From NCBI GenBank assembly GCA_030765535.1, contig JAVCCH010000098.1:38563-102562 (forward strand): a DNA stretch of 64,000 nucleotides, read 5' to 3'. Positions 43,701 through 58,089 of this stretch are shown in pieces. The notes beneath the pieces are model-generated. The model was given only the letters and a program-made list of their open reading frames with translations. It was not told the origin of the DNA and searched no databases. Positions within the stretch are counted from its first letter, which is position 1, and each line of letters begins with the position of its first letter. The position numbers and the translations under genes were made by a program. The stretch is from Candidatus Tenebribacter davisii (GTDB lineage: Bacteria; Cloacimonadota; Cloacimonadia; Cloacimonadales; TCS61).

Positions 43701-44579
43701 TCATATCATATCATCCTGCGCTCCCCCTGAATCCTGGGCATCCTCAAACAACATCTGCCTACTACTTTTTCCGATCATTTCATTTTTAAATTCTTCTGCG
43801 GAACGACCACGAATGGTTTCTGCAATTTCCCAAACATAGTTATACAGGTGGAGTCCTTTAGATGTTGCAATGATTTCTCCATTTTCCACACCAATCTGTT
43901 CAGCACAGTACTGTTTCATCAACTCAATTGCACCAAGATTGGCAGGAAGACCACCCCAAAGATCCCAGGAACGGAAATAAGGATAAAAGTGAAGTTTTCC
44001 ATCTTGAATTCTGGTATCAATATGACGTAAGCATGGGGGATCTTTCAGAAGCATGTCAGAAGGTTGTCCCACCTGCATAATCATCTGATTGTCCCTGAAT
44101 CCTTTATTTTTATAAGTCCAGATCATTAATTCCATTTGGTTGACTTCAAACCCGTAATTTACACCTTTTATAATTTTTTTATCATGCAGTGCGTTTAAAT
44201 CATCAATCAAAATATTGTTAATTTTGGCTAATTTAGTAGTTAAAATGTCCATCATAAATGCTTTGCATATTCTACTTCCATAGGTATAACTTTCACCTTT
44301 AGCTTCTTCACCGGTCATAAGATATGGGAGATAATCATCCATATAATCCTGAGCAACAGGATCATCCAACCCTAAAGCTGGATTCAATTTAGGCAGAAGT
44401 TCTCCAACCCCTGGACATTTTGCATGAAGAATCACATAATCCATTTCTTTTCTTTTCTGTCCTGCAAATGATCCTGTATCAACTGTAAAATCTCTCCCTA
44501 ACTCAATTGCTTTGTAAAGAGTTTGGAACCATAAGTCAGGTAAATTAGTAGCTTCTACATGAATAATATTTTGTGTCAT
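43701..44579 (-). CDS. Thymidylate synthase (ThyA) superfamily enzyme, divergent: thymidylate synthase or dUMP hydroxymethylase
   Basis: DPPCLRHIDTRIQDGKLHFYPYFRSWDLWGGLPANLGAIELM...GLHLY aligns with E. coli ThyA [41 protein letters not shown]...DTHLY. The catalytic Cys, the Arg of (Y)xRS and the substrate-selecting Asn are kept. The His after the Cys is replaced by Leu. Confidence 0.6.
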   Translation of the reverse strand: MTQNIIHVEATNLPDLWFQTLYKAIELGRDFTVDTGSFAGQKRKEMDYVILHAKCPGVGELLPKLNPALGLDDPVAQDYMDDYLPYLMTGEEAKGESYTYGSRICKAFMMDILTTKLAKINNILIDDLNALHDKKIIKGVNYGFEVNQMELMIWTYKNKGFRDNQMIMQVGQPSDMLLKDPPCLRHIDTRIQDGKLHFYPYFRSWDLWGGLPANLGAIELMKQYCAEQIGVENGEIIATSKGLHLYNYVWEIAETIRGRSAEEFKNEMIGKSSRQMLFEDAQDSGGAQDDMI

Positions 44580-45309: not shown

Positions 45310-45608
45310 TATTGACCCTCAAAAGGTTTATGAGTACGCACTGTTATACAAATATCCACTATATGCAAACGAGTTGTGTGTGTTATTTTTTCAGATGATT
45401 TTCCGTAGTGTAGTGTAACATAGTCGCTATTATCATTGGTTGCAAATTGTATAATTGATTTTGGGCATACATCAATTATTACAGGAGTTCCTGGTCTTAT
45501 AAATAGATCTTTATTTAAAATAACTGCCATATTGTAGTTATGATTTTTAGAGTCTTTATATATTTTTAACTGCCTGTTCAATGATAAATCAATTATTATT
45601 GTTTTCAT
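45309..45608 (-). CDS. Small protein, paralog 3 (99 aa)
   Basis: LKIYKDSKNHNYNMAVILNKDLFIRPGTPVIIDVCP. Start overlaps the previous stop. Confidence 0.4.
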   Translation of the reverse strand: MKTIIIDLSLNRQLKIYKDSKNHNYNMAVILNKDLFIRPGTPVIIDVCPKSIIQFATNDNSDYVTLHYGKSSEKITHTTRLHIVDICITVRTHKPFEGQ

Positions 45609-46020
45609 AGGGATTCTCCGTTAAATATTTCTTATGAGCTTCAATTTGTTCTTTCATTACTTCGTTGTTCCACCCATCTGGCTTATGATTCTTGTCACGA
45701 TCATCCAATTCAGGATGGTTATCGTATGTATCAAGCATACAAAGAATAGAAAACAATGCGCCAGCTAAATGGTGTTTAATGATTCCCAATTCTTGTGCTG
45801 AATGATCATAATTTTCACCATCCCTGTAAGCTATTAAATGCCGCATAGCACCAGAAAACATAGAGGTAGTAGCGAACCCTAATTCCCAGGATCTTTTATA
45901 ATATTTGATTAAACCTTCCTCATATGCTGGAGGTAAATGTTTTGCTATCAATCCCCAAGGAATTAAATCCATATCAGGCTTGTTTTCATTGATTGTATTT
46001 TTTGGGGCTTTGCTTTTCAT
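45589..46020 (-). CDS. Hypothetical protein (143 aa)
   Basis: Sits next to the ThyA-like gene in a possible nucleotide-metabolism cluster. No motif assignable by eye. Confidence 0.35.
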   Translation of the reverse strand: MKSKAPKNTINENKPDMDLIPWGLIAKHLPPAYEEGLIKYYKRSWELGFATTSMFSGAMRHLIAYRDGENYDHSAQELGIIKHHLAGALFSILCMLDTYDNHPELDDRDKNHKPDGWNNEVMKEQIEAHKKYLTENPYENNNN

Positions 46021-49323: not shown

Positions 49324-50414
49324 AATCCACTCCTTCCACACACAGGACACTCTGTTTCTGCCCTGATTTTATCGTGTTGTTTTATGGCTTCATTCACTTC
49401 TTTAGTAGCTATTTTATGTTGTTCTTCATTTCTTTTAATTTTTACCAAAAGATCTCGGACAATTTCAATTTGTTCATTGTATTTATTGATAAATATCTTT
49501 TGCTTCTGTAGTGCTTTTAACGCTGTTAGAGCTTCAACAGTATCACTACTATCAGAAAGCTTTAAATCAACAAGTTTGATAGCTTCAACAGTGTTTTGAA
49601 TGATAGCTCTTTGATCTTCCTTGTTGCTAAGAGCTTCGCTTTGATCACAAAGACGTACAAGAGCTATTTTGGCTATACCAATATCATCGAACTCTTTCAA
49701 TTTTTCGTCAATATTTTTAATGAGTCTTATATTTTCAGATAATTCTTGGAACTCAATTTTTTTATGTTCTGCTTTGTGCATAAACTGTTCTAATTTCTTG
49801 GCAAACTTCTCTGCCTTCAGTACCCATTCAGTTTCTTTGAGTTCTTTTTGACGATCTTCAATTCCTTTTTTATGCACACCTATCTCAGCATTACATGATC
49901 TGACCTGTGAATTAATACTTTTTATTGCATCATCCATTATAGTCAGTCCAGCAACTTTGTTAAATTGCTTTGCTACCTGTCCTGGCTTATCTGCCAGTAG
50001 GAAGTATTGTTCTGTGGGATGCTGTCCCTGAATGTTGACTTCCTTCATTCTGGTTATTTCTTGTACTTCATCAGGAACATCAGTTTTCAAAGCTCTAAGA
50101 GGTTCTTGATTATCTATTTGATAATGATTTATACCCCCAGCATAACCATCTCTTGCTCTTGTTACAGTCCCAGAATCTTTATATTTGATTATGACTTCAG
50201 TGGCTTTTAATTTATCCTCTTTCTTTTTGGGATCAAGTTTATCATCTCTGTAACTATCACCTTGAGGACGATTCTGGGCATTCCATTTTATCTGTCTGAT
50301 TAAACCAGATTTACCTTCATCACTCGCACCAATTAAAATATTCACACCTTCATGTAATTCTATGTGCATATCTTGGTGTGTTTCAAAATATTTACTTTCA
50401 ATAGAATCAATCAT
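49320..50414 (-). CDS. SbcC/Rad50-like ATPase, N-terminal half (Walker A and coiled coil, ending at the zinc hook CPVCG)
   Basis: Walker A ILIGASDEGKSGLI. Long coiled coil. The C-terminus is ...ETECPVCGRSGL, a CxxC hook motif. Confidence 0.6.
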   Translation of the reverse strand: MIDSIESKYFETHQDMHIELHEGVNILIGASDEGKSGLIRQIKWNAQNRPQGDSYRDDKLDPKKKEDKLKATEVIIKYKDSGTVTRARDGYAGGINHYQIDNQEPLRALKTDVPDEVQEITRMKEVNIQGQHPTEQYFLLADKPGQVAKQFNKVAGLTIMDDAIKSINSQVRSCNAEIGVHKKGIEDRQKELKETEWVLKAEKFAKKLEQFMHKAEHKKIEFQELSENIRLIKNIDEKLKEFDDIGIAKIALVRLCDQSEALSNKEDQRAIIQNTVEAIKLVDLKLSDSSDTVEALTALKALQKQKIFINKYNEQIEIVRDLLVKIKRNEEQHKIATKEVNEAIKQHDKIRAETECPVCGRSGL

Positions 50415-50956
50415 TATTGAATATTCTCCTTTACATAGTTATATGCAGGGCTATCACAACAAACCCATCCAACACATTGCTCTGCTGCAAGTCTTGCACA
50501 AACAGCATTATCAAAATCAACATATCTATCAAGATGTATAGTTTTCTGATTTATTTTTATTTTTGATTCCCATTTATTTCTGCTCTTACAATAATAAACT
50601 CCTTTAATGCCTGATGTATTATGTTTAAAATTTCCTGTATTTTGTAAATTACGTTTGTGTGTTAATTCTCTTAGATTACAAATACGGTTATCGTTTTTAA
50701 TTCTGTTTATATGATCAATATCATTTTTAGGTAAATACCCATAAAAACCTATCCAAATAATTTGATGTGCATAAAATCTTGAATTACCTATACCAACTCT
50801 TAAATAACCATTACAAGAATCTTTTATTATATCCCCAATTTTTATACGTGGACAATTTGGGCATTTCCATCTGAGAACTCCTGTTTTTTTATTATATGAA
50901 AATAATTTCCTAACTTCTTTTTGTGTTGGGGTTACTTTTTTTAATTTCTGCATCAA
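50414..50956 (-). CDS. HNH homing endonuclease with C-terminal AP2 DNA-binding domain (copy 1)
   Basis: HNH motif DIDHINRIKNDNRICNLRELTHKRN. AP2-like segment SGIKGVYYCKSRNKWESKIKINQKTIHLDRYVDFDNAVCARLAAEQ. Confidence 0.7.
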   Translation of the reverse strand: MMQKLKKVTPTQKEVRKLFSYNKKTGVLRWKCPNCPRIKIGDIIKDSCNGYLRVGIGNSRFYAHQIIWIGFYGYLPKNDIDHINRIKNDNRICNLRELTHKRNLQNTGNFKHNTSGIKGVYYCKSRNKWESKIKINQKTIHLDRYVDFDNAVCARLAAEQCVGWVCCDSPAYNYVKENIQ

Positions 50957-51068
50957 TCATTCTCCTAATTATTGCCGACAGACTTCTTTCTTCTTCTGTT
51001 GCAATCTTTTTAATGTACTTTAGTTGTTCATCTGATAGTCTTATTCCCAATGTTTTTTTCATTTTCAT
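50931..51068 (-). CDS. Small ribbon-helix-helix (RHH) protein overlapping the start of HNH copy 1
   Basis: MKMKKTLGIRLSDEQLKYIKKIATEEERSLSAIIRRMIDAEIKK is a beta-strand plus two helices, the CopG/Arc pattern. Not in the ORF track (under 60 aa). Confidence 0.45.
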
Positions 51069-51106: not shown

Positions 51107-51532
51107 TTAAATATAGTTAAGTTCTACATCTGCGTCAACAAACATTTTTTCAGTTATTTTAATTTTATCACCCCATCTTTTAAATTGTTCTACATTGGCA
51201 TAACAAGTTACAACCCGTATTATTCCAGATTGAATTATTGCAGAAGCACATTGAGAACATGGTGGCATAGGTCATACATAAAGAGTAAACCCAGTAAGAT
51301 CTTCTTTACTAAAAAGAATTGCATTTAATTCCCCATGGATTACTTTTGCATATTTATTTTGTCTGTTATTAAGATCATCATCAGGTATGCCTTTAGGATA
51401 ACCATTAAATCCAAGAGATACAATTCTCTTATTGTCAGTGATAACAGATCCAACTTTAGTTGATGGATCTTTTGACCAGAATGCAATATGTTCTGCTAAT
51501 TTTATAAATCTATTATCCCATTTATCATTCAT
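51107..51532 (-). pseudogene. dCMP deaminase with an in-frame TGA at 51269-51271 (pseudogene or recoded/readthrough)
   Basis: N-terminal part WDNRFIKLAEHIAFWSKDPSTKVGSVITDNKRIVSLGFNGYPKG...HGELNAILF...TLYV, then TGA, then PMPPCSQCASAIIQSGIIRVV. The HxE and PCxxC zinc motifs lie on either side of the stop. The ORF-track entry 51272..51532 is the upstream part. Confidence 0.55.
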
Positions 51533-51666
51533 AGTATATATCCAGTAGCAAGAATCCTTTTATCTTTAACGGCAATAGCTCCAATTTGTCTTCTGAGACA
51601 GGAGCTTTTAGTGGCAACAACTTTTGTGATACTGAAGAAATATTCATCCCAGGAAAGCTTACTCAT
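51532..51666 (-). CDS. 44-aa fragment duplicating the dCMP deaminase N-terminus
   Basis: [43 protein letters not shown] with its own AAGGA RBS. The stop overlaps the ATG of the full gene. Confidence 0.4.
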
Positions 51667-51772: not shown

Positions 51773-52630
51773 TTATTTGAACATTTTGATTTGTGCTCCA
51801 ATTGATGTCATACCCTCTACAGGCATAAACACAGCAGCTTTATTCTCTGACATTTTTTCAAGAACTTCTAATCTCCTGAGTTCAATTAGTGCTGGAGTAA
51901 CGCCTTCCCCAATTATCTTATTCTTATCCCTGATTGCCTTAGCTTTTGTGATCTCAATTTGATAATCAGCTTCAGCCAGCAATAGCTCATTTTTCTTTTT
52001 GGTCATATCAATCAATGCTTGATTTTCTTCCTTTTCTATTGACATCTGCCGCTCTTTGGACATATTCACAGCATCAGTAACAACTTTAGGGTAAGCTATT
52101 TCCCCGAGAGCAATATCAGAAATTTCAAGAGGGGTATTTATTAAAACCTTTGTCAATGATGCCTTTATCTCCCCTGATAATCTTGCATAGTTTTTATGCA
52201 CATCTTCAACATTGTATTTACTAAGAATCTCACGGGCTTTATTACGTACAGCCATTCGTCCATACACATTATAAACTTCCATGAACTGCACAATCTTATC
52301 ATCACCTGGAGTAATATCATTAAACATGGAATTGATTACATCCTGAGATCCAGCAATTCTCCCCCTGAATTTGACATGGGCAGTAATGGTAAGTTTGTCC
52401 TGCAAAATCACCTTAACACTTTCGGAATAAGTAGCTGTATTTGTCTGCAATAGTACCAATTCATCCCGACCCCATAAAGTGTATTTTCCAGGGACCAAAA
52501 CATCAAGGCTGTATCCACTTGTGGTAAGAATCTTCCCTTTCGCAGTAGGTGGAACAGTTTCCCATCCACATGAATACATTGCCATTAACAATAGCAGGAA
52601 TACGATGGATAATAAATTAATTTTCTTCAT
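51773..52630 (-). CDS. SPFH/band-7 (stomatin/prohibitin-like) domain lipoprotein
   Basis: Signal peptide MKKINLLSIVFLLLLMAMYSC. The central region has SPFH-like character. A C-terminal coiled-coil segment EKEENQALIDMTKKKNELLLAEADYQIEITKAKAIRDKN follows. Confidence 0.45.
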   Translation of the reverse strand: MKKINLLSIVFLLLLMAMYSCGWETVPPTAKGKILTTSGYSLDVLVPGKYTLWGRDELVLLQTNTATYSESVKVILQDKLTITAHVKFRGRIAGSQDVINSMFNDITPGDDKIVQFMEVYNVYGRMAVRNKAREILSKYNVEDVHKNYARLSGEIKASLTKVLINTPLEISDIALGEIAYPKVVTDAVNMSKERQMSIEKEENQALIDMTKKKNELLLAEADYQIEITKAKAIRDKNKIIGEGVTPALIELRRLEVLEKMSENKAAVFMPVEGMTSIGAQIKMFK

Positions 52631-52925
52631 TGTTGAAACTCCTTTTTGAGTCTGATTTAAGTTCTGCCATATCAATGGCTTGTTGTTTTTTAAATGTTAA
52701 TTTCTGCACCACAACCCTTTCTGGCAATGCTGTATTGATCGTACTTGACCTCCTTTCAATTTTTGATATTCCCTCTTGTTTGAAACGTATTGGATTAACT
52801 AAAAATAAAATAGCCATTATAATGATAAGCATAATTCTTACTTCATTATTTTTTACTTTATAGGTAGCAAATATAAGAAAGGCTCCTACAACAACCTGAA
52901 TTAATTGAACAGTTTGAATTTCCAT
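52617..52925 (-). CDS. Small two-TM membrane protein directly upstream of the SPFH gene (NfeD-like partner candidate)
   Basis: Two hydrophobic helices followed by a short soluble tail. The pairing with an SPFH gene is the basis for the NfeD-like idea. Confidence 0.3.
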   Translation of the reverse strand: MEIQTVQLIQVVVGAFLIFATYKVKNNEVRIMLIIIMAILFLVNPIRFKQEGISKIERRSSTINTALPERVVVQKLTFKKQQAIDMAELKSDSKRSFNNEEN

Positions 52926-53315
52926 TTATTCTTCCTTTGGCATTATAACTTCAATGAATAAATCAGGCGCATTAACAATTAAACGATCTTCCAGCATGGT
53001 AACTGCGGAATAGTCGATATCTTTTGAATGAGATACAATAACAATAGCACCAACAGGGATTGATATTTTTCCCATTTCTTCAATTGGTTTTACTTCTGAA
53101 GCAACAGGATCAGGAAGCATTCCAGGCAAAGAATTTAGATCAATGAGCATTTGAATATCATCAGCTTCTAAATCCAAAGAAACTTGATACTCTGCGAAGT
53201 CGTCACTCTTGCCTGTTTCCATGCAAAACCAATCTAAATCACCATCTTCTATATCGTCTTCATACATCCATGTATTATCTGACCATACAAAAATTTTTAT
53301 TAATTCCTCTGACAT
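52926..53315 (-). CDS. Highly acidic protein (129 aa)
   Basis: Asp/Glu-rich, for example YEDDIEDGDLDWF and DLEADDIQMLIDL. Confidence 0.35.
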   Translation of the reverse strand: MSEELIKIFVWSDNTWMYEDDIEDGDLDWFCMETGKSDDFAEYQVSLDLEADDIQMLIDLNSLPGMLPDPVASEVKPIEEMGKISIPVGAIVIVSHSKDIDYSAVTMLEDRLIVNAPDLFIEVIMPKEE

Positions 53316-53851
53316 TGTATATTCTCCTTCACATATTGGTAAGCAGGACTACTACTATCACACCCTTCCCAATTTAAACATTGCTCTCCTGCTAAACGAG
53401 CGCATACGGCATTGTTAAAATCTTTATAATACCCAAGCCCTTTATTTTTGAAATTTAAAGTAATTTGAGCTATCCATTTACTTCTATTTTTATTCCATAC
53501 AACTCCTTTTACACCGCTTGTATTATTTTTAGGAGTTCCTTGATTTCTTTGTTGACATTGATCAGAAGCTTCTCTTAGATTTAAAATCCAATTGTGATGT
53601 TTTATTTGATCTTCGTGATCAATTTGATTTTCAGGCATATACCCGTGATAGTGGAAATATGCAAGTCTATGAGCTAAGTACAATTTTCCATTTACACATA
53701 TTTGGATGTATCCTTTTTTATTTTTAGATCCTGCAATATCACCTATTTTTACTCTTGAACTATTTGATATTTTTCTTATAAAAATACCAGTTAATGAGTT
53801 GTAATCTAATTGTCGCAGGAGTTCCTTATAAGTTAGTTTTTCAGTCCTCAT
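53300..53851 (-). CDS. HNH-AP2 homing endonuclease (copy 2)
   Basis: QIDHEDQIKHHNWILNLREASDQCQQRN plus SGVKGVVWNKNRSKWIAQITLNFKNKGLGYYKDFNNAVCARLAGEQ. Confidence 0.7.
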   Translation of the reverse strand: MRTEKLTYKELLRQLDYNSLTGIFIRKISNSSRVKIGDIAGSKNKKGYIQICVNGKLYLAHRLAYFHYHGYMPENQIDHEDQIKHHNWILNLREASDQCQQRNQGTPKNNTSGVKGVVWNKNRSKWIAQITLNFKNKGLGYYKDFNNAVCARLAGEQCLNWEGCDSSSPAYQYVKENIQCQRN

Positions 53852-55381: not shown

Positions 55382-55660
55382 TCCTTTTAAATGGACTTTT
55401 TTGGTTTTAGACTCAAAATATATCTTTTTGCACTTAGGACAAACTATATCCCCTGATAATGCTAATTCCATTAACTGAACATCAGTCCCGCAGGGACAAA
55501 ACACTGTTGCTTCCCCGTCATCATAATCATCACAAAAATCAAATTTTATGTGGTTGTTATTACGTTCTGTCCCTTTTATAAATGCATAAAGACAAATACC
55601 GAACAAAATAAAAAATTCAAATACGCCAACAATGGCAAGTATCCCCATAATTGTTTTCAT
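55358..55660 (-). CDS. Membrane protein with C-terminal zinc-ribbon (100 aa)
   Basis: TM segment ILAIVGVFEFFILFGICLYAF, then CPCG...CPKC. Confidence 0.35.
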   Translation of the reverse strand: MKTIMGILAIVGVFEFFILFGICLYAFIKGTERNNNHIKFDFCDDYDDGEATVFCPCGTDVQLMELALSGDIVCPKCKKIYFESKTKKVHLKGLIRKDDL

Positions 55661-55980
55661 CGGTTTTGTAAATCATCAAGTGTATCGGCATCATTCCTTT
55701 CTGGACGGAGTTCAAGATTCCTTGGAAGATAAAGAGAATAAATCCCTGGCTTTGATTTATCGCTTATTAAACCTTCAAATTCCAAAGAAGCAATCATCCT
55801 TTCATTATTTCCAAAAGGACTGCCAGGAACTTTCTTGTTTTTATATACCTGGCCACTTTTCAGTACAATTGTTGCTTTTGCCATTTTCTTTCTCCTTAGA
55901 ATCCCATTTCTTTTGTTATGTAACTTTGCATCACGGTTAACAATGAAACCATTTCGCTGTATTTCATACCTGCTTGACAA
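55657..55980 (-). CDS. Hypothetical protein (107 aa, or 75 aa from internal Met)
   Basis: ORF only. Confidence 0.3.
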   Translation of the reverse strand: MSSRYEIQRNGFIVNRDAKLHNKRNGILRRKKMAKATIVLKSGQVYKNKKVPGSPFGNNERMIASLEFEGLISDKSKPGIYSLYLPRNLELRPERNDADTLDDLQNR

Positions 55981-57462: not shown

Positions 57463-58089
57463 TTATTCATTCAATTCTATGACTTCCTCAGATTTAATTT
57501 TCTTCAGTACATCTTTTGATGATCCTACGGCAATACTGATTTTTCTGACATGATTCTTTACATATTGATAAGCAGGACTACACGAATCACAACCTTCCCA
57601 ATTTAAACATTGTTCTACTGCAAGACGGCAACAAACAGCATCATCAAAATCTTTGAAAGTTCCTAAATTTTTTGTTTTTTGATTTATAGCAATCATAGCT
57701 GTCCAATATCTATCTCTTTTAGAAAAAGTGACTCCCTTAACTCCACTTTTATTATCCTTTCTATTTCCTGCATTTTTAATATTACATGATCTGGAAACTT
57801 CCCTAAGATTACTAATCCGATTATTATGCTTTACTCTATCAATATGATCAATATCATTTTCCGGAAAATAACAATAAACATAAAACCAAGCAAGTCTATG
57901 AGCTTTGTACTGTGTTGTATTAACACGTATAGCAATATACCCTTCAGAATTTTTATACCCTGCAATTTCTCCAATCTTAACACTTTGATTATTAGAAATT
58001 TTTCTTATAAAAATTCCTGTTAATGGATCATAATCAAGTTGCCTTACCAATTCTTCGTGAGTCAATTTTTCTTTTTCTAAGTGATTCAT
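57463..58089 (-). CDS. HNH-AP2 homing endonuclease (copy 3)
   Basis: DIDHIDRVKHNNRISNLREVSRSCN plus SGVKGVTFSKRDRYWTAMIAINQKTKNLGTFKDFDDAVCCRLAVEQ. N-terminus is about 70% identical to copy 2. Confidence 0.7.
   Translation of the reverse strand: MNHLEKEKLTHEELVRQLDYDPLTGIFIRKISNNQSVKIGEIAGYKNSEGYIAIRVNTTQYKAHRLAWFYVYCYFPENDIDHIDRVKHNNRISNLREVSRSCNIKNAGNRKDNKSGVKGVTFSKRDRYWTAMIAINQKTKNLGTFKDFDDAVCCRLAVEQCLNWEGCDSCSPAYQYVKNHVRKISIAVGSSKDVLKKIKSEEVIELNE

Follow-up and report, generated by a model that had tools for sequence, protein, structure and literature searches.

An in-frame TGA in the dCMP deaminase gene of an Antarctic-lake siphovirus: probably a recent opal mutation beside a recombination scar

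Background

A dCMP deaminase gene in which a TGA codon stands between the two motifs that supply the zinc ligands raises the question of whether the stop is decoded as an amino acid, whether the enzyme is made in two pieces or whether the gene has simply been damaged. Such a gene was originally predicted in the stretch of DNA analysed here (64,000 nucleotides, hereafter the window), next to an upstream ORF thought to repeat the N-terminus of the enzyme. A fresh nonsense mutation, local readthrough and a remnant of gene conversion driven by homing endonucleases were offered as possible explanations.

The window is a siphovirus-type phage genome. Its plus strand encodes a large terminase, a portal protein, a major head protein, a tape measure protein of 1622 aa and a J-like tail fibre of 2974 aa. 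The minus strand carries a replication and nucleotide-metabolism module that includes a 5'-3' exonuclease, a Rad50-like AAA_15 protein, a Mre11-like phosphoesterase and a protein with a PF18909 MazZ-like domain. A divergent thymidylate-synthase-like gene is also found on the minus strand (43701..44579; phrog_160, 5e-14; PF00303, 3.6e-10); its match to TIGR03283 (1.8e-21) falls under the cut-off of that model, and its product probably uses the dUMP that the deaminase supplies. The two short ORFs that will concern us, of 86 and 45 aa, exactly match proteins on a 102,562-bp contig of the 'Candidatus Tenebribacter davisii' MAG, a representative of the Cloacimonadota from Ace Lake, Antarctica, that was recovered from a co-assembly (PMC8542988); the phage is linked to this host by binning only.

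The locus is flanked by HNH genes, as had been noticed. Both of them encode HNH_3+AP2 homing-endonuclease-like paralogues on the minus strand, one downstream of the locus (50414..50956; PF13392, 2.4e-15) and the other upstream of the block described below (53300..53851; PF13392, 1.8e-7). The paralogue alignment contains three such genes from the region, the two flanking copies share diverged direct repeats (D1 and D2), and no counterpart of the HNH_3+AP2 genes was found in the related contigs L004 and L005. Immediately downstream of the deaminase, a minus-strand gene codes for a ribbon-helix-helix (CopG-like) protein (50910..51068; PF01402, 4.3e-6). The scan for promoters and terminators showed no enrichment and nothing informative.

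The interrupted deaminase gene

The resident dCMP deaminase gene extends over positions 51107..51532 of the minus strand. It has 141 sense positions, with TGA at codon 87, followed by a terminal TAA (51107-51109), which agrees with the 142 in-frame codons originally counted. The frame reads MNDKW...HGELNAI...TLYV-TGA-PMPPCSQCASAII...NYI-TAA or, with longer stretches around the interruption, VIHGELNAILF...GFTLYV-TGA-PMPPCSQCASAIIQ...VELNYI-TAA. The in-frame TGA occupies positions 51272..51274 of the minus strand (TCA on the plus strand) in the context GTA TGA CCT ATG, three nucleotides away from the place first assigned to it, as 51269-51271 is the CCT proline codon right after the stop. The 5' part (51272..51532, minus strand) is an 86-codon ORF that contains the HGE catalytic and zinc-binding motif (H66, E68) and corresponds to the product expected upon termination; it is deposited at NCBI as 'hypothetical protein P9L97_06175' (P0017) of the Ca. 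Tenebribacter davisii MAG. The 3' part (51107..51271, minus strand) runs from Pro88 to Ile141 and encodes the PCSQC motif with the zinc ligands C92 and C95. An ATG located 3 nt past the TGA (51266-51268, minus strand) opens an ORF of 53 aa.

The position of the TGA between the HxE and PCxxC zinc motifs was thus recognised correctly. The joined protein matches PF00383 across the stop with 65.1 bits (5.8e-18), the cut-off being the Pfam gathering threshold of 25 bits, while the 86-aa piece alone reaches 37.9 bits (1.7e-9) and the 53-aa piece alone stays under the cut-off with 17.7 bits (3.4e-3). Judged by the score of the joined protein and by the gap-free alignment of a close relative (L003) on both sides of the interruption, the match across the stop is far above chance. 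The H(A/G)E motif of the PF00383 family is represented by HGE at residues 66-68, and neither H66 nor E68 varies among 73 homologues. The PCxxC motif is encoded past the TGA of codon 87 and comes to lie on the same chain as HxE only by readthrough.

The AlphaFold2 model of the read-through sequence (pLDDT 93.5, pTM 0.88) predicts a three-layer alpha/beta/alpha deaminase fold. Residue 87 is placed at the end of a strand (83-87), ahead of a loop and of the helix that bears PCxxC (93-102). The nearest solved structures are the dCMP/dCTP deaminase of PBCV-1 (7FH4; TM 0.87, rmsd 1.8 A, sequence E-value 5.6e-18), human DCTD (2W4L; TM 0.82), T4 Cd (1VQ2) and the dCMP deaminase of cyanophage S-TIM5 (4P9C). 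The small viral enzymes (7FH4, 4P9C and 1VQ2) and human DCTD share with the protein studied here the fold, the HxE...PCxxC motifs and a length of about 140 aa, and the phage setting with a ThyA-like gene alongside also resembles that of small viral dCMP deaminases. They differ in that only the present gene is interrupted by TGA at codon 87 and in that the loop of its clade, W/Y-P-M-P-PC, is one residue longer than the T-x-x-PC of the solved enzymes. The conversion of dCMP to dUMP is best considered a putative activity, as is the choice between dCMP and dCTP as substrate.

CDA-fold deaminases have an established zinc-dependent mechanism. The 86-residue termination product keeps His66 and Glu68 and lacks Cys92 and Cys95, that is, two of the three protein zinc ligands, together with the last 39% of the fold. 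On account of the loss of these cysteines and of so much of the fold, we infer from the chemistry of this fold that the 86-aa product would be unable to bind the catalytic zinc and would be inactive.

Codon 87 in related sequences

The top database match, P0001 (141 aa, 99% identical), shows an apparent Trp at the site of the stop and could be mistaken for an intact allele. This candidate was rejected. The DNA from which it was called, a 1234-bp MEGAHIT contig (L002; ENA ERZ27315541), shows 100% identity with the window along the 900 bp compared, TGA included, so that the Trp of P0001 is an artefact of gene calling under translation table 4. Since this contig carries the TGA, the stop is reproduced in a separate assembly, with the proviso that both assemblies may stem from the same or related samples. 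Among 5.8 billion protein clusters, in which P0001 makes up a single-member cluster, no protein of 90% identity or more was found whose Trp codon is genuine.

The nearest distinct relatives are 84% (P0002, on contig L003), 77% (P0003, on L004) and 74% (P0004, on L005 and L006) identical in amino acids, and all of these contigs translate under the standard code. The homologous codon and its neighbours read GTA TGG CCA in L003, GTA TGG CCT in L004 and GTT TGG CCT in L005 and L006, and the alignment of L003 to the gene in the window has no indels and about 85% identity on either side of the stop. At the DNA level, no close phage relative was found in INPHARED. The IMG/VR and JGI metagenome contigs were scanned with the codon-degenerate pattern TAYGTNTGRCCNATGCCNCCNTGY, which corresponds to Y-V-W/stop-P-M-P-P-C. 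TGG is present in 70 of the 72 matches to TAYGTNTGRCCNATGCCNCCNTGY; the two matches with TGA (L034 and L036) belong to unrelated high-GC sequence without any deaminase context. The deaminase genes with a YVWPMPPC motif in the viral and metagenome collections, about 67 in number, all have TGG.

The residue at this site in 73 homologues is most often T (25) or Y (21), followed by W (17), V (4), S (2), C (1) and F (1), which indicates that any of these seven residues is naturally tolerated at position 87. The expectation that homologues would usually have Thr or Ser there is consequently valid across the broad family only, as the nearest clade has Trp. By these comparisons, the ancestral residue in the YV-W-PMPPC clade is Trp, with codon TGG, and not Thr or Ser. 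The mutated base is position 51272 of the plus strand, which is T here and C (TGG) in the ancestor. As TGG is found in the nearest relatives and in all the deaminases recovered by the pattern scan, the TGA is, as far as the sampled sequences tell, a one-off G>A transition that is not conserved. The codon checks of the relatives and the degenerate pattern scan also exclude that the two ORFs represent an arrangement conserved among homologues.

The residues downstream of the stop retain all the family invariants (P91, C92, C95, Q101 and W120, among others). Against L003, the Nei-Gojobori dN/dS ratio is 0.16 for the part upstream of the stop and 0.12 for the part downstream, and neither value exceeds those between intact relatives. 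The 3' part has therefore not decayed, and the substitution pattern suggests that either the nonsense mutation is recent or the region is still translated. Of the three explanations first offered, a fresh nonsense mutation is the one that agrees with this absence of downstream decay, with the TGG of the closest relatives and of about 67 family members, and with the single transition that separates the two codons. An intact 3' part with signs of constraint is also expected from continued expression by readthrough.

Recoding and readthrough

A genome-wide reassignment of TGA to Trp was considered and rejected on several grounds. TGA is the ordinary terminator of other genes and ends about 22 of the 72 non-overlapping ORFs of the window, the ORFs of 2974 and 1622 aa are free of it, no other recognisable gene on the coding strands of the window is split by an in-frame stop, and ARAGORN detected no tRNA genes in the 64 kb. 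The early judgement that global recoding is unlikely is borne out by this stop usage, by the absence of other split genes and by the lack of tRNAs in the window. Recoded phages and code-4 bacteria, in which TGA means Trp, are similar to this locus in having TGA where homologues have Trp, and P0001 was itself called under code 4. Unlike them, the phage has only one such codon in 64 kb, uses TGA to end about 30% of its ORFs and has no suppressor tRNA in the window.

The folding of 111 nt that surround and follow the stop revealed nothing significant in comparison with shuffled controls (z = -0.32), and therefore no SECIS-like or stimulatory element. A selenoprotein was excluded given the lack of a SECIS hairpin and the presence of W, Y or T at the site in homologues, with Cys in only 1 of 73. 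Readthrough stimulated by RNA structure was rejected as well, and there is no sign that any readthrough is programmed: the stop is not conserved (TGG in L003-L006 and in the approximately 67 deaminases) and RNA structure is absent. The A1 protein of Qbeta is a programmed UGA readthrough product; in contrast to that case, the stop described here is unconserved and the product of readthrough would be the normal enzyme instead of an extended isoform.

Passive leakiness is a different matter. The +4 base after the deaminase TGA is C, a context found after none of the 21 bona fide TGA terminators of the window, which are followed by A (11), T (7) or G (3). This C belongs to the ancestral Pro codon and thus provides no evidence of design. 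UGA-C is reportedly a classical weak terminator, a view said to go back to Poole, Brown and Tate in 1995. PMC9841425, in which that study is listed as ref. 13, also describes UGA_C as a weaker terminator. In E. coli, tRNA-Trp reads UGA by wobble and about 80% of the insertions at UGA are Trp when RF2 is attenuated (PMC11903333). Given the UGA-C context and the fact that the ancestral residue, Trp, is also the one chiefly inserted at UGA, passive leakage is possible and would restore exactly the ancestral enzyme, in small amount. In this respect the TGG>TGA change would be comparable to ordinary opal mutations at Trp codons, a classic one-step change with leaky suppression by tRNA-Trp. Because such leakage would rebuild the ancestral enzyme, the allele may best be called null or strongly hypomorphic, 'null' being perhaps too strong; the ATG located 3 nt past the stop, the UGA-C context and the identity of the lost residue make some residual function plausible. 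Local readthrough, as originally suggested, is therefore possible in its passive form, and its programmed form finds no support.

The upstream ORF and a probable mosaic junction

The ORF immediately upstream of the deaminase (51529..51666, minus strand; NCBI protein P9L97_06180) has 45 codons and not the 44 first reported, and it does have a putative ribosome-binding site of its own, a Shine-Dalgarno-like AAGGAA that lies about 9 nt ahead of the ATG. Its TGA overlaps the ATG of the deaminase (CTATGA). It matches positions 2-42 of the NCBIfam ComEB profile TIGR02571 (3.1e-10) and is 77% identical to P0122 and 60% identical to the dCMP deaminase of mycobacteriophage Kimona, which identifies it as the N-terminal remnant of a ComEB/DCTD-type dCMP deaminase. 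The claim that this ORF repeats the N-terminus of the resident gene did not hold: BLASTP aligns them with 26% identity over 38 residues and the two share no repeat at the DNA level, so that a tandem N-terminal duplication was rejected. It was also considered as the first exon of a gene split by an intron or a homing element, and this was dismissed because the window contains no remaining exon; tblastn and motif scans of the whole window recovered no further deaminase piece with HAE or PCxxC that could complete it. In the absence of any such piece in the window the 45-aa ORF appears to be a dead end and, given that it stops at residue 45, ahead of both the catalytic HAE and the PCxxC, it is better described as a remnant than as a member of the ComEB/DCTD family.

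The surroundings of this remnant differ from those of the syntenic relatives L003-L005, in all of which the 45-aa ORF is absent. Directly upstream of it, the window has a lineage-specific cassette of two minus-strand genes (51773..52925) that encode a 102-aa membrane protein (52617-52925) and an SPFH/Band-7 protein (51773-52675; PF01145, 7.8e-14), in the order membrane protein, SPFH/Band-7 protein, short spacer and 45-aa ORF. In L004 the cassette is missing between the homologue of a 129-aa gene and the deaminase, the order there being the homologue of the 129-aa gene, an unrelated 55-aa ORF and the deaminase; in L003 and L005 this place is taken by other small ORFs. The pair of membrane and SPFH genes also occurs in the viral contigs L079 and L080, where no deaminase follows it. 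The arrangement expected of a donor, an SPFH gene followed by a complete ComEB-type deaminase, was not found, these SPFH relatives being devoid of it, and the only close relative of the 45-aa ORF (P0122, on L082) is found on a 1.3-kb ENA contig among different neighbours.

The junction reads ...ACT GGA TAT ATA CTA TGA ATG.... A possible history is that an illegitimate recombination brought in the block with the membrane and SPFH genes, its 3' breakpoint falling within a ComEB-type deaminase of the donor, and that the first ~43 codons of the latter were thereby fused at a point about 5 nt upstream of the resident ATG. This event would be separate from, and older than, the stop in the deaminase, and the 45-aa ORF would now be at most a translationally coupled leader ORF. 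Recombination is the most economical reading of the three relatives compared, from which its direction, its mechanism and its donor are inferred. Such a remnant is no copy of the resident gene, which is at odds with the proposal that it was left behind by gene conversion. The C-terminus of a DNA ligase represents a second remnant (last ~45 codons, 55660-55794) only 4 kb away, which shows that scars of this kind are frequent here, and, together with the three HNH-AP2 paralogues, it characterizes the module as a recombination-active mosaic.

Discussion

Several scenarios may explain the interrupted gene. We consider it probable that it reflects a recent opal knock-out or knock-down of a phage dCMP deaminase, accompanied by a recombination scar and involving no new coding mechanism. 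In that case, an accessory nucleotide-metabolism gene of a phage binned with Ca. Tenebribacter davisii, coding for a small dCMP deaminase of the YV-W-PMPPC clade, would have suffered a single G>A transition that turned the TGG of Trp87 into TGA, and termination at this codon would yield the inactive product of 86 residues. T4 cd mutants illustrate that a phage can do without dCMP deaminase as long as its host supplies dUMP. By extension from T4, the phage may tolerate the lesion because its own host provides the dUMP.

The main challenge to this interpretation comes from the decoding capacities of the host. If UGA-C were read efficiently by a host tRNA-Trp(CCA), for instance a variant whose anticodon stem has 4 bp, or by a suppressor encoded in the other ~38 kb of the contig, the gene would be functional and the change from TGG to TGA would be nearly neutral or would lower the dosage of the deaminase. 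That Trp is ancestral at codon 87, that the UGA-C context is foreign to the 21 true TGA terminators of the window and that the 3' part is intact with low dN/dS would all agree with such decoding. Moreover, a tRNA-Trp(CCA) whose stem is 4 bp long reads UGA and has been reported to be prominent in the Cloacimonadota (PMC13092985), the phylum to which the MAG of the contig belongs. Nevertheless, only this genotype has the stop, the genome itself often uses TGA as a regular terminator, there is neither another in-frame TGA nor any tRNA in the window, and the host was assigned by binning alone. We regard efficient decoding as unlikely. A genome scan with the 4-bp tRNA-Trp arm of the Cloacimonadota TCS60 type as probe returned no Tenebribacter genome among its records, which does not in itself speak against such decoding. 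That the TGG>TGA change is a near-neutral or dosage-tuning allele, and the phage gene therefore a naturally occurring example of ambiguous UGA decoding in a lineage with the standard code, seems quite improbable. A trivial explanation would be that the real phage has TGG and that the TGA arose as an artefact of sequencing or assembly, or got into the consensus as a minority variant. The difference amounts to one base and the MAG was derived from a co-assembly, in which strain variants can mix (PMC8542988); yet the separate MEGAHIT assembly has the same base within 900 bp of identical DNA, the protein database holds no TGG version at 90% identity or more, and an Illumina consensus seldom contains substitution errors, all of which makes an artefact very unlikely.

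The two remaining possibilities concern the organisation of the locus. Both lesions could have arisen when a flanking HNH enzyme cut the DNA and a co-infecting phage provided the template for its repair, a process that would not be exclusive of the others. The region does contain three HNH_3+AP2 paralogues, two of which bracket the block as diverged direct repeats, and their absence from L004 and L005 implies that the activity of mobile elements is real here. Yet the junction looks illegitimate, and homologous repair is implausible with a 45-aa ORF that is only 26% identical to the resident gene. The stop, for its part, is a point transition inside an otherwise clade-typical sequence; 255 nt separate it from the junction and about 320 nt from the nearest HNH gene, and no conversion tract is visible. 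A common origin of both lesions by gene conversion hence appears highly improbable, and any part of the HNH enzymes in either of them is a matter of conjecture. It could finally be imagined that translation ends at the TGA and resumes at the following ATG, and that the fragments of 86 and 53 aa assemble non-covalently into a two-piece enzyme. The 3-nt spacing from stop to start (TGA CCT ATG) would fit termination-reinitiation, the break falls at a strand/loop boundary of the modelled fold and both halves are intact. However, the ATG of Met89 is ancestral, being present in all the relatives with an uninterrupted gene, and it therefore did not evolve for re-initiation; it has no Shine-Dalgarno sequence ahead of it, and no relative displays the two-ORF arrangement. 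Spontaneous fragment complementation is, to our knowledge, not known for dCMP deaminases. Of all the alternatives, we find this one hardly credible.

Taken as a recent opal mutation beside a recombination scar, the locus is genuine but ordinary. It documents the loss or strong reduction of an accessory gene for dUMP supply in an Antarctic-lake siphovirus, as well as a mosaic, HNH-rich module for replication and nucleotide metabolism. It would be relevant to the evolution of the genetic code only if the host reads UGA as Trp efficiently. The locus also calls for caution in two respects: a one-base opal mutation at a Trp codon, combined with a gene call under code 4 such as P0001, can mimic stop-codon recoding, and a recombination scar left by another deaminase lineage can mimic a tandem duplication. 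As in the remnants known from the mosaic junctions of phages, a truncated piece, here of the ComEB type, abuts an unrelated intact gene and a lineage-specific cassette. The difference is that in the present case the remnant and its neighbour happen to be members of one enzyme superfamily, which is why the 45-aa ORF has the appearance of a duplication.

Deaminase reading frames and TGA codons

The public 141-aa protein P0001 has a tryptophan at a position where the DNA of its gene (573-998 of L002, an ENA contig identical to the window over the 900 bp compared) reads TGA, because the gene caller applied translation table 4 to this short contig. Such database entries can pass for intact alleles. 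The ComEB-type fragment, an N-terminal deaminase remnant just upstream of the resident dCMP deaminase gene, has a sole close relative, P0122 (77% identity), encoded at positions 1045-1266 of the 1.3-kb contig L082 (ENA ERZ28603438 scaffold_6614). Its reading frame runs for 73 codons to a TGA located 9 nt from the end of the contig. In ComEB-type enzymes, the HAE motif normally follows at the point where P0122 stops. This stop could correspond to another nonsense allele or to a phage in which TGA is recoded.

Among the 21 bona fide TGA-terminated ORFs of the window, the base 3' of the stop is A in 11, T in seven, G in three and C in none, an absence that is mildly non-random at 36% GC and fits an avoidance of the weak UGA-C signal.

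Genomic context of the deaminase locus

Three HNH_3+AP2 homing-endonuclease-like paralogues lie in the window within a stretch of 8 kb (50414-50956, 53300-53851 and 57463-58089, all on the minus strand). The first two form direct repeats that have diverged (71-82% over stretches of 38-75 nt), one on either side of the RHH-deaminase-SPFH block. No counterparts of the window's HNH_3+AP2 genes were found in L004 and L005, contigs carrying relatives of the deaminase. The small membrane protein and SPFH/Band-7 protein (51773-52925, minus strand) form a two-gene cassette conserved across several viral contigs of ~85-100 kb, including L079 (3628-4861) and L080 (3712-4876).

The last ~45 codons of the minus-strand ORF 55657-55980 (55660-55794) align with residues 393-436, the very C-terminal end, of a 436-aa ATP-dependent DNA ligase encoded by L005 (47% identity, E = 5e-6), and no further ligase sequence was found within the window. 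This piece appears to be another gene remnant, within the module that also carries the ComEB-type fragment.

Also on the minus strand are a PF18909-domain protein (dATP/dGTP diphosphohydrolase N-terminal, MazZ-like; 45589-46020, 3.6e-15) and a very divergent thymidylate-synthase-like protein (43701-44579; PF00303 at 3.6e-10, NCBIfam matches far under cut-offs). Together with the deaminase, these domain assignments hint at a possible modified-nucleotide or unusual dNTP-pool pathway.
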